Shown piece after piece: positions 33,594-45,906 of a DNA stretch of 64,000 nt. The DNA comes from Chloropicon primus (Eukaryota). The position numbers and the translations under genes are program-made. The notes under the pieces were generated by a model. The model made no database searches, had not been told where the DNA came from, and was given only the letters and a program-made list of their open reading frames with translations. The stretch is taken from contig CP060756.1 of assembly GCA_023205875.1 (NCBI GenBank), positions 62,001 to 126,000 on the forward strand. Direction: 5' to 3'. The stretch's first letter is position 1. The number at the start of each line of letters is the position of its first letter.

Positions 33594-34849
33594 TTACTCG
33601 AGGCCGAGCTCCTTGATCTTGGCCTCGATGAGGGGGACGTCCTCGGGCTCGTCCACGCCGTGGGCGCAGTGGTTCACCATGATGACCTTGATCTTGTAAC
33701 CGTGCTCGATCACCTTGAGCTGCTCGAGGTCTTCCGTGAGCTGCGACGAGCGAATGAGCGCAAGCAATTCAAGGAGAGAGAGAGAGGCGAAAAGAGTTTG
33801 TTCATGGGTCAGCCATCGTCGCAACACGATCCGGAGACAGAACCAAAAGAGGAGGCGGACGTACCATGAGCGGAGTGGCAGGAAGGCTGTTGTAAATCCT
33901 CAAAAAGTTCCTGTCGTAGCACTGGAGCCCCAAGTGAAGCAAGTAGGGCTTGTCTTGGAAGGGTTCTGGGAAGTTCTTGATCTCCCCCTTCTTGTTGTGA
34001 GGGATCACACCCCTCGAGAAGTAGATGGCATACCCCTGCTGATCCGTGATGCACTTCACTCTCTGCCTCAGCTCCACCTCGTCGTGCTTCAGGGGGGTGC
34101 AGGGGGTGCTGAAAAAGAAAGGAGACCGCCAAGTAGTCAGATCGCGCCGTCGTCGGCGTCGTAGAGAGAGGGAGAGAGAGAGAGGTCGTGAGGAGGGACG
34201 ACTCACCTGTAGACCGCGTCCGGAGAGTTCTTCAGGGTCTCCGCGACCTCGTCGATGATCTCGGGCTCGATCAAAGGCTCGTCACCTTGAATGTTCACAA
34301 CAATGTCGTAAGACTCCTTGAGCTTGGAAACCGCTTCGTTGCACCTCTCGGTCCCGTTCGGGCAGTCCACGCTGGTCATGACCACCTCGGCTCCATGCTC
34401 CTTGCACACTTTGGCGATCCTGTCGTCGTCCGTCGCGACGATCACCCTGTCGAGCTGCGTGGCCTTCTTGGCCTGCTCGTAGGTCCTCACGATCATCGGC
34501 TTGCCCAAGATGGGGGTCAGGGGCTTTCCAGGGAAGCGAGTCGACGCGTACCGTGCCGGTATCACTCCAATCTTCAATGCGAGCGAGTCAGCCGCAACAA
34601 AAGCGAGTCAGCCGCAACAAAGGCAAGACCGGACAGAAACAGCTTCAAGTGTCAGTGCACGAAAATGAGTCTCAAAGGTGTCGGTTCCCGGACCGTCACC
34701 CCGAAACCTAGCCGAGGTTTCCACTCGGTCCCCCTCTTCATTCCTTCACTTACGACTTTAGTCCTCTTCTTCTTTCCAAAGAACTTGTCCTTGAGAAAGA
34801 ATGCAGCCGTTGCCGCGGACGACACGATCGCGGTCACCACCAACTTCAT
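33594..34849 (-). CDS. kdsB: CMP-Kdo synthetase (exons 34754-34849, 34207-34571, 33865-34108, 33594-33740)
   Basis: [42 protein letters not shown]; all introns GT-AG and in frame. Confidence 0.93.
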
Positions 34850-35238
34850 GATGGTCTTCTCCAGATGCCTTTGCCTTTGCCTTTGTGACGTCCTCACTCG
34901 CTCGCTCGTCGTCGGTACCAAGGGATCAATCCCGTCCGCTCAAGGTCTGCGGCAGCTGCTGCTGGTTTACTTTACGATGAAGGTACGCGAGGCCAGCGCG
35001 ATCAGCACAGAGGAAGGGGAAGGGGAAGGGGAGGACAAAAGATGACAAAAGGTGGCTTGAGGATGAACTTGGGGACGAGAACATGGAGACAGGCGTGAGC
35101 TTGACAATCGGATGTAACCACGACACCGGCACGGTGGAGGTTGCGAGGAGAGGAGCCTCGCCAGGAACCGTACCAGGGCCAGGGCCACCCCAGGAACCAG
35201 GAGGGGAACAACGGCAAAGGCAGGAAGAGGAGGGGAAG

Positions 35239-38200
35239 ATGAAGGGGAGGACGGTCCCGTGGGGGGGACGAAGGCGCCTTGGAGGGAGATCTAGCACATT
35301 CACGCGCGCGGTGTTGGTCCTGGCTTGCCTCTTGGTGGTCGTGAGCCCGGGGCAGGCCGTCGAAGGGGGGGAAGGGGAGGGGAGGGACGCGCTCAGGACT
35401 CAAGCACCGCCTCCAGCGCGAGCGTTGAAGCCTCAGAAGGCCCTCTCCGCGCCAACCCGCGTCGAAGGGACGGTGGGCGCGTGGTCGGATGAACTGGAGG
35501 TAAAATTCTCCCCGAGCAACGCGTGCAGGGTGAACTTCAAGGTGACTGGATTTGGCAACGCGAAACCGGAGGATGTCACCTTCGAACCGCCTTTCCTCGT
35601 CTTCGATGGAGACGTGGAGACCAGGACCTTCAAGGTGAAGAGCTCGGGGCTGGGATGGTACTCAGTCATTTACGAATTCGAGAGCGACCACGCGTTTCCA
35701 TTCGATGGTGTGAGGACGACGGTTCTGCAGGTCTTGGATAAGGCCCGAGTGTCCCTGGTTCAGCCAGGGAATTCCCAGCTCGTTCTGGGGTCCACCTCCC
35801 CGTTTTACAAGCTAAGCCTGACAAAGAATCTGAACGTGAAAGTGGTCCCCGTGGCCGAGGAACTCGTTTTCGAGCCTCGCGAGCTCTCGTTCTCGCGTTC
35901 GGCATCGCTGGCTCCTCAAGTCCAAGAGTTCAGGGTTCGAGTCCCAGGAACGTTGCCAGAGAAGCTTCGCGCGAGCGGGGACATTCACAAGTTCGAGGTG
36001 CCAGTGAACCTGGTGCTGCAGTGCAACGAGGGGGAGGAGGACGCGGCGTGTGATGTGGCCCGCTTGCACGAACCAGTGGAGTTTCTGTGGCAGATCTTGG
36101 ATTTGAACGAGCTCCGCGTGGAAGAGAAGATCGTTGGACCAATCACTGGCATACGCTTGCCCTTGTCGCTTAAGTTTCCTCAGGAAGCAATTGTCGAAAT
36201 TTACTCCAGGGAACTCGTGTTGAGCAAAAACAGGTTGGTGATCAGCAAGGAGGACGTAGGAGTGAACACTGAGCTCAGGGTGGTCGGGAGAAGGGGCACG
36301 AAGAGATCTTGCAGCGCAGCGGAGCCTTGCGTCATTCAGTATGCCGTGAAAGATGTCCAGGGTAGACTCAGCCCCAACTTTGCTCAGGGGGCAACGACAA
36401 ATTCCGGTTTTCACGGAAGCACGATCGTCCACGTCGTCGACAAACTCGAGCTGGACACGCCCAATTCCACCGTGGCCTTTGTGAATCAAACCATCGACTT
36501 GACCTTCACGTGGCGCACTGCTGTCCCTAGCGACATGGCACATCATCAGCTGGAGAACGTGGACCGCGCAAAAGGAATCGCAGGGGGAGAGAGCCTTTTC
36601 GAGATTCATTGCCTGGCCTCACCGGACGTCATGGTCGAGCCAAGCGTCCTGGTGGTCTCTGACTTGAGTCAAACGCTTGGTTTCAACATCACGCCGACGA
36701 GAGAAGGGAAGTTCGAGGTCAAGTTCAACTTGGGGGAGGGACGGTTCCAGAACCTCGTTGAGTTCAAGCCAGAACCCGTGGTGTCGATCATCGTGTACGA
36801 CTCCTTCCACGCCGAGGACTTCTCATTCGAAACAAAATACGGTTTAGGAGGGTTGGACACCGAGCTCAACATGATCCTGAGAAGGGCTTTATTCTCGCGC
36901 ATGGCCACGAAGGAGACAGCGGAGGCCCTTGGGGTTAAGCCTGTCAAGGTAAGCCAGCAACGCTTCATCACCTTTCCTTCTGTTCGTTTTTCTTGGGAAC
37001 TTATCTAATTGTGCATTTCCACTCGCTTGTGTTGCATCTTCCGGAAACCTGCAGGGCATCCTGCTTTTCGGCCCGCCGGGCTGCGGAAAGACGACGGTGG
37101 CGAGGCAGATAGGAAGAATGCTCTTGACACAGGAACCCAAGGTGGTCAATGGTCCAGAAATAATCAGCAAATACCTCGGCGAAAGCGAGAACCAAGTTCG
37201 TTCCCTGTTCGCTGACGCTGAACTCGATCAGAATGAGCGAAACGTTCACCTCATCGTCTTTGATGAGATTGATGCTCTCGTGAAGCCGCGCGGCCGGGGT
37301 CAAGGAGAAGCGGCGGATCAAGTGTACGACGGAATAGTCAATACCATCTTGAGCAAAATGGATGGTATCCATAGACTGGACAACGTCCTCGTCGTGGGCA
37401 CGACCAACCGGAGGGATCTTATCGACCCAGCTCTGCTGAGACCGGGTCGGTTCGACGTTCAGGTGAACATCAAAATCCCTGATGAAGAGGGAAGGCTTCA
37501 GATCTTCCGCATCCACACGAAGAGGATGTTCACGTCGAACTTGGTCAGCAAGGACGTGGATTTGGTGAAGCTGGCCAAAATGGCACGAGCCTTCACGGGG
37601 GCGGAGATCGAAGGCGTCGTGAAATCAGCTGCCTCTTTGGCGGTGGAAGACGCTTTCAAAGCCAGTGATTCCAGTGCCACGACAATCGATCGAAACCGAA
37701 TTCAGCTGACTCAGGAGCACTTCGAGAAGGCGCTCAAAGACATCGAGCCCGCGAACATAGACTCCAAGGATGCTCTGGAGCAGCTGTACAGCGGCGATCT
37801 GTTCAAGTTTTCTCCAGAAATGGTTGAAGCGATTTCTCGATTCTCTCAGTCCCTTGAGTACGTCTGCGCCGACTCGGGTGGGGATGAGTCCGAGAGAAGT
37901 CACAAGGCTATCAGCATCCTCGTGCATGGGGCACCGGGGACTGGGAAAACGTCTTTCGTCTCCAGCATTCTGAGGGACAAGTACATCGACAACATCGCAA
38001 TGCTGGAAGTCCTGTCCGCGGAACTCCTCCTTCAAGAAAGCAAGAGCTCCGTGGAGCGGAAGATTCGGATCTTTGGAGATGCGTTTCGGTCCATCCTGTC
38101 CAACAAGAGCGGGGTCGGTGTCCTTGTCTTGGACGACTTGGAGGGGATCATTGAGCACGTCGACACGCAAGCCGGTTCGTACATCAATTCTAACATCTTT

Positions 38201-38590
38201 TCCCAACTCAGGATACTGATGCGGAGCAAGATGCACAGCGACGTCATCATCGTGGCGACCGCGTCGACGCAATCGATCATGAAGTTCGACCAGCTCCTCG
38301 ACTTGTTCGACGTGGAGATCGAGTTGCCCCTGGTGCAGTCCAGAGCTGAGATCAAGACGCTCCTGGCTTTGGCAGACATGAGCTCGCAGACGGACTATTC
38401 CGCAATCGAGGACTTCCTCCCTCTCCCCATCAAGAGGGTGATCAAGTTCCTGGACCTGGAGGCTTCTGGCAACGGGGACCTCCTCCCTTCCGCCGGACTA
38501 GCGCCTTCCCGTTACGGCGAGGAGGCCGACATCGGGATGGTCGATGTCATCGCCAACAACAACACGATGCTGAAAATATTCATGATCTAA
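35239..38590 (+). CDS. NSF/Sec18-like AAA+ ATPase with signal peptide and novel N-terminal domain (intron 36949-37054)
   Basis: GLGGLDTE..RRALFSR..GVKPVK|GILLFGPPGCGKT..EPKVVNGPEIISKYLGESE; second module GAPGTGKT / LDDLE. Start 35083 or 35239. Confidence 0.85.
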
Positions 38591-38971: not shown

Positions 38972-40309
38972 GACTCAGAGATCGCGTTTCATGAGCGTGT
39001 TGTGTGTTTGTTTGTGTCTGACGAGTTTTTCTCTCGACTGTTCCCGCAGACTATCGTCGCCCAGTACACGGGCCACGCCCTGCTTCAGCGGCTGGTGTTC
39101 GTGGCGAAGAAGGCTGCCGAGAAGAAGGATGAGACGCTGGAGCTCGAGGCTTTGAAGGTTGCCTGCGATGAGTCGAAGAAGGGGGAGCACACGTCCCTTC
39201 ACAAGGAAGTGACGGAGCTGATGCGTGGCAGGTGCGGTCCGGAGTACGACTGCGACGCGGCCTGGGTGGATCAGGTCGACAGGCGCACCGCGCAGAAGCA
39301 GGACAAGTTGGAGTCGGAGCTGAATGGTTACAAGGCGAACCTGATCAAGGAGTCGATCAGGATGGGTCACACCTTCTTGGGGGAGTTCTTTTACGAGAAG
39401 GGCGACCTCAACGCGGCCCTTAAGTGCTACATCAGGACCAGAGACTATTGCACGACGAGCAAGCACGTTGTGACCATGTGTCTTAACGTGATCAAGGTTT
39501 CGCTCGAGTTGGAGAACTACCTTCACGTTCTGAACTATGTGCAAAAGGGGGAGCAAAACCCGGGTGTCCAGCAGGATGCGAAGACCATGGATAAGCTCAA
39601 GTGCGCCGCGGGCCTGGCGAACTTGGCGAACGGGAAGTACAAGATTGCTGCCAGAAACTTCTTGGAAGTGAGCGCGGAGTTAGACAACAACTACTCGGAC
39701 GTGATCGCTCCTCAGGACGTCGCGACCTACGGAGCCTTCTGCGCGCTTGCGTCCTTCGACAGGTCTGAGCTGAAGCAGAAGCTGATCGACAGCGTCTCGT
39801 TCCGAAACTTGCTGGAGCTCGTGCCGGAGGTCAGGGAGGTGGTGTACGACTTTTACGCCAGCAGGTACGCCTCGTGTCTGAAAATGCTGACGGGTCTGAA
39901 GAAGTACCTGGAGTACGACATCTACTTGCACAAGCACATCGAGGAGCTTGGGAACCAGATCAGGGAGAAGGCCATCGTCCAGTACACGATTCCGTTCACC
40001 TCGGTAGTGCTGCAGAACATGGCCACCGCTTTCAACGTGGATGTGGACTCCCTGGAGAAGGAAATTGCTGATCTGATTGCTAACGGGCAGATCCACGCCA
40101 AGGTGGACAGCCACAACAAAATTCTGTACTCCCGCGGCACGGACCAGAGGGACACCACCTTCGAGCGGGTGAAGAAGACGGGAAGCGATTACCAGAGGGA
40201 CTCGGAGCACGTCCTCCTAAGGGCGAGACTGCTGGAGTACCAGTTAGTGCAGACGTCCGGAAGCTCGAAGGCCGCTGCAGCTATGTCGCTGGAACTAGAC
40301 GAAAAGTGA
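38757..40309 (+). CDS. CSN1: COP9 signalosome subunit 1 (intron 38841-39049)
   Basis: NLIKESIRMG, RTRDYCTT, YGAFCALASFDR, C-terminal PCI domain. Confidence 0.93.
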
Positions 40310-40409: not shown

Positions 40410-41702
40410 TCACGCGGGGAGTTTCGTCGGATCGATGATCAGATGTCGGATATTGTGGCGCTTCCAAGTGTAAGTGACGTGGACAAGCTCGTCGTCGGAT
40501 TGAATGATCGACGGGTAGCTGAATTCGACGTTCCTCTTTGAGCTCTCCAGCGTCGTGACCTCTTGCCACGAATCGCCGTCGTCTTGCGAAACGGCAAGGG
40601 AAATGATCTGCCTTCCAGCAAAACCACCCTTCTTGAAGGAGTGGTTGTAGATCAAAACAACCCTTCCGTCCTTGAGCTTCACGGCATCCAGGCCAGAGTT
40701 GGGGCAGGGGATCGTCGTGAGCTGGGGTTTACCGAACTCCCTTCCCGTGCTGTCCGACTTGGCACTGACCATGTAGGTCGATCTGGACCTCGCAACCATT
40801 CTCACCCTCTCCGAATCATCGATCCAAACCGACGGCTGTATGATGCGTCCGTTGAATTCTATGGGCCCCCACGCTTTCCAAGTCTTCCCCCCATCAGTCG
40901 ACTCCTCCATCATGCAGCTCCAGACTCGGTTCCTCTTCTCCCTCGAGCTCGGCGCGATGATGGTGCCGTCCGAGAGCTGGATGGGCTTGTTCTTCGCGGG
41001 GCCTATGATGCCTGCTCCCAGGTGCTCCGGCTCCGACCAAGTCACCCCCTCGTCCAAACTCCTCTTGACGTACCCCTTCCAAGTCTGAGGGTTCCTCCCC
41101 GTCTTGTAGAAGAGCAAGACTTCGTTCCCCTTGGTCCTGAACAGCACGGGATTCCAGGTCGGCACGCCGTTCGTTGGCTTGACGAGCTCGACGGGCTCCG
41201 TCCAGTTGCTCTGGTAATCCTCGAGCCTGGACAGGAATATCCCAACATCGTCCTTTCCCTCGAACTTCCCCGCAAACCACGCGGCCAGGAGAGCCCCGCC
41301 CTCGACCTCCACAATGGTGGAAGCGTGATGCGATGGTTTCGGCCGCTTCCTCCTGTCGGGCATCACGAACTTCCTGGCCACGATGGACTCGTGGAGATCG
41401 ATCTCCTCGCCGTGGTGGACACCTGTGGGAACACCTGCCTTTGCCTCCTCCTCGGAGGTGGTCACCTTGTGGGACTCTCCTTGCCAGCCAATCAGGTTGA
41501 GGTCGCTCTTGTTGTTCTTGTGGGTCGCTCTAGCCGCCCTTGCGACGTCACTCGCGACGAGGAGGAGAACGACGAGGAGGGAGACCCAAAGACTCGCATC
41601 TTGCGCACCCCCTTGCCTTCTCCGTCCCCCTGCTTGGACCATCCTACCACCGCAGCCTGCGACGGCGAGGGGATCTGATGAATCAAGATTGTCGATCATC
41701 AT
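40410..41702 (-). CDS. BNR-repeat sialidase-fold protein, secreted or membrane-anchored
   Basis: HASTIVE, WNPVLF, Asp-boxes SLDEGVTW / STDGGKTW / SQDDGDSW, SYPSII; N-terminal hydrophobic segment. Confidence 0.85.
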   Translation of the reverse strand: MMIDNLDSSDPLAVAGCGGRMVQAGGRRRQGGAQDASLWVSLLVVLLLVASDVARAARATHKNNKSDLNLIGWQGESHKVTTSEEEAKAGVPTGVHHGEEIDLHESIVARKFVMPDRRKRPKPSHHASTIVEVEGGALLAAWFAGKFEGKDDVGIFLSRLEDYQSNWTEPVELVKPTNGVPTWNPVLFRTKGNEVLLFYKTGRNPQTWKGYVKRSLDEGVTWSEPEHLGAGIIGPAKNKPIQLSDGTIIAPSSREKRNRVWSCMMEESTDGGKTWKAWGPIEFNGRIIQPSVWIDDSERVRMVARSRSTYMVSAKSDSTGREFGKPQLTTIPCPNSGLDAVKLKDGRVVLIYNHSFKKGGFAGRQIISLAVSQDDGDSWQEVTTLESSKRNVEFSYPSIIQSDDELVHVTYTWKRHNIRHLIIDPTKLPA

Positions 41703-44191: not shown

Positions 44192-44470
44192 AGGGGAACC
44201 GCCTGGCCGTGCAAAAGACGGACGAGCTGTGGGGTCTCAGGCTGACGATGCAGCGGATAAGGGAGTTGGTCAGCGCGAAGAAGGTCGCGGAAGGACCCGC
44301 GACGGACCAAGTCGGGAACTCTTCCGTTCAGTCCGACGTCTGCAAGCTGTGAGCAGCAGTAGAAGCTTGGATTATAAGTCATCGTAACGACAGACAACGG
44401 TGTGTATGACGGTGTGTTCATTCATTCATTCATTCATTCATTCATTCATTGGCCCTTGTCAAGCAATCCT
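44192..44470 (+). repeat. Internally deleted duplicate of the bZIP gene 3' end and 3'UTR
   Basis: 44192-44217 matches 45308-45333; 44221 to about 44470 is near-identical to 45475 to about 45700. Confidence 0.9.
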
Positions 44471-44739
44471 TCCTCCCTATAATCTGATCCCTTGGTTCGC
44501 CGCGGTCTCGGACTTCAGAGCCTCTAGAATTCGAGGGAGGAAGAGCCCTCTAATCTAAAAAAAAAATGTCAACATAGAGGGGAACTAGCGACGGCAACTA
44601 GCGACGGCGACGGCGACGGCGACTTGTGGCGACCCTACCTCCTTCCATTGTTGCGTACCTCGACCTCGAACCCTGGCCTGGCATCATCTCACAGCACCGC
44701 ACCGCAGCATCCAGGGAAGGAGAAAGAGATTCAAAGGCC

Positions 44740-45014: not shown

Positions 45015-45606
45015 AGGCCACCTGCCGGACGCCCACGGGAACTACTGCGGGAACTGCTGCGCGCTCCAAAAGGATGAGGTCAAAGAGGAAGTCGACCTGG
45101 ACACGGGGCTGGCCACCTGCGGCGGGTTGGGCGCTTTCCAGGCGACTCTGAACGGTGCAGCGGGCATAACCCAAACAGCGGGCAAGGTGATCCCGGTGAC
45201 CTCGGAGTGCCCCGCCGTGGTGCAGCACGAGCACGAGACGTTCTTCGAGGGAGGGGTCGAGTACAAGAAGTGCACCCAAGTCCGCAAGGTTCAGTCCAAG
45301 TGCAAGAAGGGGAACCGCCTGGCCGTGCAAAAGTACAGGCAGAAGAAGAAGAACGAGTTTGAGATGCTGAAGAAGGAGAACGCCGAGCTCAAGGCCAAGG
45401 TGGCGAAGCTCGAGAGCATTGTCAAGTACTGCCGCGGCGGGGACCCCAACAACGAGACAACGGCGAGTCAGGCTGACGAGCTGTGGGGTCTCAGGCTGAC
45501 GATGCAGCGGATAAGGGAGCTAGTCAGCGCGAAGAAGGTCGCGGAAGGACCCGCGACGGACCAAGTCGGGAACTCTTCCGTTCAGTCCGACGTCTGCAAG
45601 CTGTGA
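44740..45606 (+). CDS. bZIP transcription factor, group F-like (intron 44819-45016)
   Basis: GNRLAVQKYRQKKK basic region plus leucine zipper; Cys/His-rich N-terminus. Confidence 0.75.
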
Positions 45607-45703
45607 GCAGCAGAAGAAGCTTGAATTATAAGTCATCGTAACGACAGACGACAGTGTGTATTGTATATCATTCATTCATTTGGCCCTTGTCAGCAATCAT
45701 TCC

Positions 45704-45906
45704 TCATCCCGATTTTTTGTTCGCCTCGGCGGCCTTCCTCTTTTCCCACGAAGGGACAAAGCAATCCTTGTCCGAGGACTTGCAGGGGTTGAACCACATG
45801 TCGCCATCCACCCAGCCGACAATGTCCGCGGGCTTTAGCTTAGCTGTAACGTGGACCTTCTTCTTGGGCCTGTAGAACGTGTAGTGGTCGTTCGTCAGTT
45901 GTTTCT

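Follow-up and report, generated by a model that had tools for sequence, protein, structure and literature searches.

The window analysed here, a 64,000-nucleotide stretch of Chloropicon primus contig CP060756.1 (positions 62,001 to 126,000, forward strand), contains an NSF-like gene in which an AAA+ motor of NSF descent is joined to a hydrophobic leader and a beta-rich N-terminal region (N-region) that takes the place of the usual N-domain. The gene is real and conserved, and apparently undescribed. On balance, the evidence leans slightly towards an NSF paralogue working as a lumenal, ATP-driven remodelling motor, possibly for the scale coat of a cryptic flagellate stage.

Gene structure, conservation and NSF descent

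The gene is composed of the following elements, given in window coordinates and in amino acids (aa) of the protein.

35239–38590, + strand: NSF-like gene; two exons, 1081 aa, single open frame without internal stop
35239–36948, + strand: exon 1, aa 1–570 (570 codons from the ATG at 35239); leader, four Ig-like domains, N–D1 linker and first D1 helices
36949–37054, + strand: intron of 106 nt, GT–AG, with an in-frame stop inside; no intron here in orthologues
37055–38590, + strand: exon 2, aa 571–1081; remaining D1, D2, C-terminal tail and stop
35239–35358, + strand: leader, aa 1–40, on the basis of hydropathy; Arg-rich n-region (net +7), hydrophobic core at about aa 24–36, small residues at −3/−1 before aa 41
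35437–35742, + strand: predicted immunoglobulin (Ig)-like domain 1, aa ~67–168
35746–36102, + strand: predicted Ig-like domain 2, aa ~170–288; invariant Cys262/Cys271
36106–36441, + strand: predicted Ig-like domain 3, aa ~290–401; invariant Cys358/Cys364
36442–36801, + strand: predicted Ig-like domain 4, aa ~402–521; sequons N409 and N416; continues straight into the NSF-type N–D1 linker
36802–37753, + strand: AAA+ D1, aa ~522–803, interrupted by the intron; Walker A K582, pore-loop Y610, Walker B D640/E641, family-specific pore loop 2, sensor-1 N688, Arg fingers R699/R702
37757–38464, + strand: AAA+ D2, aa ~805–1040; Walker A K868, NSF-like non-catalytic Walker B D930/D931

The 1081-aa C. primus record QDZ19504.1/UPQ98715.1 matches the gene and is identical across the searched part, and gene-table entry A3770_03p20220 (K06027) corresponds to it by product name and by position beside kdsB (PMC6731263). 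The GC content of third codon positions (GC3) is 0.59–0.83 all along the gene. The splice junction is supported by orthologues, whose coding sequence continues uninterrupted across the splice point. The leader, the three beta-rich segments quoted in the original prediction and the start of the NSF D1 domain all lie in exon 1, as had been described. The accompanying claim that the fusion is no splicing artefact is borne out by at least seven other lineages, Mesostigma viride included, which have the same fusion and bring the total with C. primus to at least eight; in P0142 and P0174/P0175, the whole protein lies in one open reading frame (ORF). The estimate of about 500 residues for the N-region is refined to approximately 455 aa (residues 67–521), and its beta-rich character holds, with four predicted sandwiches in place of three.

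A HMMER search of the whole library with the N-region returned eight matches, the query included, and word searches added P0004, Mesostigma viride Mv25118 (P0182) and P0183. Single-ORF records comprising N-region, D1 and D2 are P0142 (1073 aa) and P0174/P0175 (1066/1097 aa), and the N-region shares an ORF with the start of D1 in P0004, P0005 and P0137. Over the arms and D1, the C. primus protein is 54% identical to P0004 and 45% to P0005. Leave-out profiles recovered the N-regions of P0175, P0142 and Mesostigma at 88–151 bits and that of P0183 at 34 bits, compared with at most 2.1 bits for reversed or shuffled controls; a narrower N-region profile did not detect P0183. Judged by these profiles, the distant N-regions are homologous. 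Because one chlorophyte and one streptophyte both have the gene, its presence in the green-plant ancestor is suggested. In all 13 compared algae, among them naked or walled flagellates and scaly Bathycoccus, the best BLASTP and TBLASTN matches were those of canonical NSF and no orthologue was evident (PMC6731263). Among the matches listed in a metagenome scan, dominated by common Walker A matches, none of the 80 loci had the family motif or the N-region.

The motor itself is closest to NSF. Sec18 is the best match of exon 2 among 282 PDB sequences (E 1.6e-89, residues 1–437), and the closest PDB entries for D1–D2 are NSF/Sec18 (9cru, 3j94; K06027). In all five full-length members, D1 keeps Walker A, the Walker B DE, the aromatic pore loop, sensor 1 and two Arg fingers; simultaneously, D2 possesses an intact Walker A and a degenerate, NSF-like DD in Walker B. 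Pore loop 2 is specific to the family, being seen in its members only among 294 compared proteins. In a D1 tree of 36 rows, a quick version from which two rows without matching Walker A were removed, the family forms one clade of seven rows (support 99) within the NSF clade and apart from Cdc48. In a D1–D2 tree of 22 rows (LG+G4), the family clade of five rows (support 100/99) is separate from canonical NSF, and a union of the family with green-plant NSF is rejected by the approximately unbiased (AU) test (p 0.001, LG+G4), to which long branches may contribute. Orthology to the housekeeping NSF does not hold: the family forms its own clade and a distinct canonical gene, for which the original prediction had proposed a check, is present as A3770_11p62700, a count of at least one among the first ~6,460 of 8,639 gene-table rows.

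Some side observations concern the motor and its relatives. A Trp-rich tip (WW or WxW) ends four of the five full-length members (P0142, P0175, P0182 and P0183), with other hydrophobic residues in C. primus, and may serve in sorting or docking. P0285 and P0293 (one of them labelled Bacillariaceae) make up a second divergent NSF-like clade, in which a degenerate D2 Walker A goes together with a long N-region unlike that of NSF; the N-terminus of P0285 looks like a bipartite plastid leader. Locus L002:6341–7801 holds an NSF-like gene with D1 only, on a contig of 29% GC and beside ribonucleotide reductase, in giant-virus style. In the transcript model P0185, the front half of a signal-peptide-bearing Cdc48 is joined to the back half of an NSF, likely a chimeric assembly.

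Fold of the N-region and likely location

In the AlphaFold2 model built with a 15-row alignment, the N-region, whose domains were modelled together and not each singly, forms four consecutive strand-rich domains, with a predicted local distance difference test (pLDDT) score of 82.4 and a predicted template modelling score (pTM) of 0.53; the pLDDT obtained from the single sequence was 33.6. The N-region is predicted from this model to be four Ig-like beta-sandwiches and has no CDC48_N or CDC48_2 Pfam match, in agreement with the initial view that the NSF-type N-domain has been replaced. Domain 1 finds its best tight match in the N-terminal domain of cystinosin, which is lumenal (Z 11.3, root-mean-square deviation (rmsd) 2.2, 93 aligned). 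Further single-domain matches are PapD-type pilus chaperones, ASH/MSP and Calx-beta (Z 8–9.7), the PapD-like ones scoring lower than cystinosin or level with it, and the identity of the arm domains to their fold matches is 9–17%. In the ESM Atlas, the best score is 0.83 (bacterial clusters), followed by a Big_9/cadherin cluster at 0.76, as leads only. In Pfam, fn3_6 alone was found in the N-region, below the cut-off (E 0.004 and 0.0003), with no profile match to the ASH, MSP and PapD families, and a comparison of the N-region with PDB sequences gave no significant match. The cystinosin, PapD/ASH/MSP and Calx-beta sandwiches are like the predicted single arm domains in fold, with no Pfam match at cut-off; this likeness indicates no function, and the fold of the N-region leaves the compartment undecided.

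The location is indicated by the leader, the cysteines and the sequons. In C. primus, the leader holds the only 19-residue Kyte–Doolittle window above 1.6 (2.03; next highest 1.24), consistent with the original description of a hydrophobic leader followed by no obvious transmembrane segment before the ATPase; across distant relatives the leader is similar in character, and a conserved second membrane segment is absent. A hydrophobic stretch stands ahead of domain 1 in nine of ten representatives, its sequence not conserved, and most leaders have a basic flank before the hydrophobic core and a neutral or acidic flank after it. A 19-residue peak of at least 1.6 before domain 1 occurs in 7/10 family members, compared with 0/10 canonical NSF N-termini. 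Other hydrophobic peaks (1.7–1.9, in three members) are situated at differing positions, within predicted strands or D1. These sequence features make the leader a putative signal peptide or type II signal-anchor.

Furthermore, four cysteines arranged as two close pairs are invariant in 8/8 N-regions, at identities of 19–48%. Ten N-regions together contain 29 N-glycosylation sequons compared with 14.3 expected (nominal Poisson p 4e-4, for homologues that are not independent and with counts of P0004 and P0137 that took in upstream read-through), and the NSF controls contain 8 compared with 17.9 expected. No KDEL or HDEL is found at the C-terminus. The leaders in 9/10, the cysteine pairs in 8/8, the twofold sequon excess and the absence of a conserved second membrane segment argue for the lumen of the endoplasmic reticulum (ER) or Golgi, or for secretion. 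Since no stop-transfer segment is present, the arms and rings would stay on the same, lumenal, side whether the leader is cleaved or not. It is likely that the protein enters the ER with its positive end cytosolic and that the arms and both rings are lumenal, with the leader cleaved or kept as an anchor and the cysteine pairs joined as disulfides. The first proposal of a lumenal, secreted or organellar ATPase is thereby narrowed: the lumenal or secreted part stands as an inference from leaders and cysteine pairs, and the plastid or mitochondrial part finds no support. Plastid or mitochondrial targeting was rejected, the hydrophobic core beginning at most 10 residues from the Met in P0005 and P0142.

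Proposed function, scale link and alternatives

NSF acts as a hexamer held by D2, in which D1 threads the client chain through the pore. By analogy, and given the lumenal location, the protein is probably an active remodelling motor. The leader would send it into the ER/Golgi lumen, where six subunits would form a ring and D2 would bind ATP and hold it. The Ig arms would occupy the position of the NSF N-domain and capture a lumenal client without SNAP, and D1 would thread the client chain through the pore by the aromatic pore loop. Torsins are not known to have an Arg finger of their own; the retained Arg fingers of the NSF-like family suggest that no LAP1-type activator is needed. Tentatively, the client may be a protein scaffold or a scale-associated complex, dismantled or released during scale formation in the Golgi cisternae, and such a scale-related Golgi client would be the most economical because of timing, neighbour and distribution.

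Regarding timing, the average RNA-seq depth in coccoid cells is 0.12 for the NSF-like gene, 36.25 for canonical NSF A3770_11p62700 and 56.99 for alpha-SNAP (Lemieux et al., PMC6731263). The neighbour is kdsB, arranged head-to-head with the NSF-like gene.

33594–34849, − strand: kdsB (CMP-Kdo synthetase, A3770_03p20210), head-to-head neighbour, RNA-seq depth 0.16
34850–35238, no strand: 389 bp separating the start codons of the divergently oriented kdsB and NSF-like genes; putative shared promoter
35083–35238, + strand: possible 52-codon in-frame extension from an upstream ATG at 35083; absent from the annotation

Depth is likewise low for kdsA (0.34) and kdsD (0), with 39.11 and 36.57 for the genes flanking the kdsB/NSF-like pair (PMC6731263). 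In P0004, the sequence read through upstream of the gene is similar to the antisense strand of the first kdsB exon (71%, E 4e-13), which indicates that the head-to-head pair is conserved in one more lineage. A main sugar of scales is Kdo (3-deoxy-D-manno-octulosonic acid), the scales are produced in the Golgi, and Pseudoscourfieldia expresses the Kdo genes more strongly in its scaly morph (PMC13213038, PMC10762512). Meiosis and sialyltransferase genes are silent in C. primus, for which a cryptic stage with scales has been proposed (PMC6731263). As for distribution, Mesostigma, the one other named holder of the gene, is a scaly flagellate.

Several observations weigh against a lumenal motor for scales. 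As regards the link to scales, 7294 of 8639 genes are expressed and ~16% lie below depth 1, so a silent neighbour alone is a weak sign (PMC6731263), and the kdsB linkage appears in one of three other lineages tested, with no such match in two. Bathycoccus has scales and Kdo genes without an orthologue; Chlorella, Coccomyxa and Klebsormidium have Kdo genes without one; and no other named scaly flagellate is among the matches listed, where clusters may be represented by fragments (P0141 for P0174/P0175) and candidates were limited to nearly 8,000. As regards location, the 11-residue hydropathy test overlaps the controls (family 2.0–3.7, NSFs 0.8–2.2), the Mesostigma model begins just before domain 1 and is without a leader, and the start Met of P0004 and P0137 was selected by the analyst within longer ORF calls. 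Sequons are not in excess in C. primus alone (2 compared with 2.3 expected) or in the ATPase halves (9 compared with 8.5), and the read-through and non-independence noted above bear on the total. At low template modelling (TM) scores of 0.18–0.34, Foldseek places ASH-repeat proteins of the ciliary central apparatus first, and these are not secreted. Finally, in the P0004 cluster, 8 of the 15 listed members are halves of 341 aa or 412–413 aa, on several long contigs. These halves (P0123, P0127, P0130, P0131; P0128, P0129, P0132, P0133) are broken within a variable loop of Ig domain 2, at what looks like a frameshift, and are either frameshift alleles or assembly errors.

The most serious alternative, though an unlikely one, is that the same lumenal or cell-surface ATPase has another role in a flagellate or sexual stage, such as gamete recognition or fusion, a flagellar-membrane coat or secretory quality control, and not in scales; its membrane anchoring may be of type II, as in the scale-linker gralins. 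Every argument on location applies to it equally, and the meiosis genes are silent as well (PMC6731263). The centrin gene A3770_03p20170, a flagellate-type gene four genes past kdsB, is silent too (depth 0), in four of the ten leaders a short Arg-rich N-tail (net +6 or more) resembles the Arg/Ala-rich tails known from gralins, and a scaly alga, Bathycoccus, does without an orthologue. However, so do the flagellate and sexual Chlamydomonas, Gonium and Volvox and the flagellate Micromonas, and the head-to-head kdsB would be left unexplained. For a role at the cell surface, ATP supply is doubtful.

A cytosolic or ciliary ATPase is improbable. Here, ASH/PapD-like repeats would act as in Hydin or CEP192, the hydrophobic stretch would be an anchor leaving the motor cytosolic, and axonemal or basal-body complexes would be remodelled. 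In Foldseek the highest ranks belong to ciliary central-pair chains, which also share first place in the wide VIA search (Z 10.9, rmsd 18), but tandem Ig chains match each other generically, and cadherins, complement C3 and Nup210 also score in Foldseek. The gene is silent in non-flagellate cells and NSF-family motors are cytosolic (PMC5070193); nevertheless, the basic flank before and the acidic or neutral flank after the hydrophobic core favour a C-terminus in the lumen, the invariant cysteine pairs and the sequon excess point the same way, and algae with normal flagella have no orthologue.

Even less credible is a decaying relic, meaning a gene that was formerly in use but has since fallen silent, with selection on it relaxed, in coccoid Chloropicon. 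The depth of 0.12 (PMC6731263), the longest branch of the family (1.0 in C. primus compared with 0.44–0.65), the loss of the Trp motif that ends the four other full-length proteins and the split forms in the P0004 cluster would fit it. In contrast, the 1081-aa frame is open with all motifs intact, GC3 keeps its range, identity to P0004 and P0005 remains substantial (54% and 45%), and decay in C. primus would be silent on the function of the family in other lineages. The idea that the gene model or the assembly falsely fuses a secreted Ig protein to an NSF pseudogene has a negligible chance and is refuted by the homologues, because the junction, situated inside one exon, is the same in single-ORF homologues from separate assemblies and in Mesostigma.

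Comparison with known systems and significance

Compared with NSF/Sec18, the family shares the tandem D1–D2, the N–D1 linker, the catalytic D1 and the non-catalytic D2, and its D1 falls in the NSF clade as opposed to Cdc48 (99). There are also differences: NSF has a double-psi-barrel N-domain that binds SNAP–SNARE and is cytosolic without a leader, whereas the C. primus protein has four predicted Ig domains and a leader by hydropathy. Its family also has its own pore loop 2 and a separate clade, and the gene is near-silent while canonical NSF is expressed. In the case of Cdc48/p97, the two well-conserved D domains, the N-domain and the C-terminal HbYX are not found in the family, which lies in the NSF clade with a degenerate D2.

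Torsins are portrayed as standing alone among AAA+ ATPases in residing in the ER lumen (PMC8889903). They have a signal sequence, disulfides, N-glycans and an ER-lumen location, all of which are inferred for the NSF-like family, but have a single AAA+ ring, which belongs to a different clade, and depend on LAP1/LULL1 for their activity (PMC8889903). The NSF-like protein has two rings, NSF ancestry, the conserved Arg fingers R699/R702 and Ig arms, and no torsin is among its best 25 Pfam rows or best 60 PDB rows. The torsin-like label originally proposed thus survives for topology and not for kinship, and the likeness is one of convergence.

SELMA sCdc48 of complex red plastids is similarly a Cdc48-family motor retargeted out of the host cytosol, but acts in the periplastid compartment, a former cytoplasm (PMC5070193); that compartment is missing from a primary-plastid alga. 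The divergent NSF-like proteins of giant viruses and Chlamydiae (type 2) likewise have an NSF D1 with a replaced N-terminal region, with no signal peptide reported in the available text (PMC9546365). Two long NSF-like proteins of diatom type group in a separate clade outside the family. Gralins (SAP98/116/126 of Scherffelia) are secretory proteins of scaly flagellates with an Arg/Ala-rich short tail, overlapping signal/transmembrane segment, N-glycans and a weak Ig-like match, but without an ATPase domain, and are likened here by description only (PMC4494055).

Other features of the window lie around the gene. An exact 20-nt tandem duplication is found at the acceptor end of a kdsB intron (34582–34621). 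The gene at 39221–40309 (+) is annotated as proteasome RPN7, while KEGG Orthology (KO) and Pfam CSN1_C indicate COP9 signalosome subunit 1. Two genes downstream of the NSF-like gene, at 40410–41702 (−), the BNR-repeat sialidase-like gene A3770_03p20240 has a depth of 30.1 and, among the 13 algae, a strong match solely in scaly Bathycoccus. The 3′ end of a bZIP-like gene is partly duplicated between 44192–44475 and 45308–45705, ~1.25 kb apart, over 192 nt at 96% and two smaller pieces of 26 and 38 nt.

In the available text of the Cdc48-family survey (PMC5070193) and the viral NSF paper (PMC9546365), such an NSF form is not mentioned, and "NSF" and "AAA" are absent from the main texts of two Chloropicon genome papers. 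NSF rows were not found in the available supplements of PMC12301720, PMC13213038, PMC12718437 and PMC11217555. A literature search found no description of such a protein, in a coverage outside which most subscription journals lie and on which supplements may bear.

If the protein is lumenal, AAA+ unfolding power would have entered the secretory pathway a second time and independently, and the protein illustrates that the NSF motor can be re-aimed through a swap of its N-domain. Shared by a chlorophyte and a streptophyte, the motor is probably as old as green plants. With still less confidence than for the Golgi client, the green-plant ancestor may have had a second, NSF-derived double-ring secretory motor, self-sufficient unlike torsins, whose Ig arms would grip lumenal scaffolds and pull them apart to shape or release Golgi-made scales; it would survive in scaly flagellates and, silent beside kdsB, would mark an unseen scaly stage of Chloropicon. 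The scale-assembly machinery of prasinophytes is poorly characterised (PMC13213038). The gene would offer a concrete, testable mechanical component of scale assembly and, simultaneously, a marker for an unseen life stage of an abundant ocean alga.

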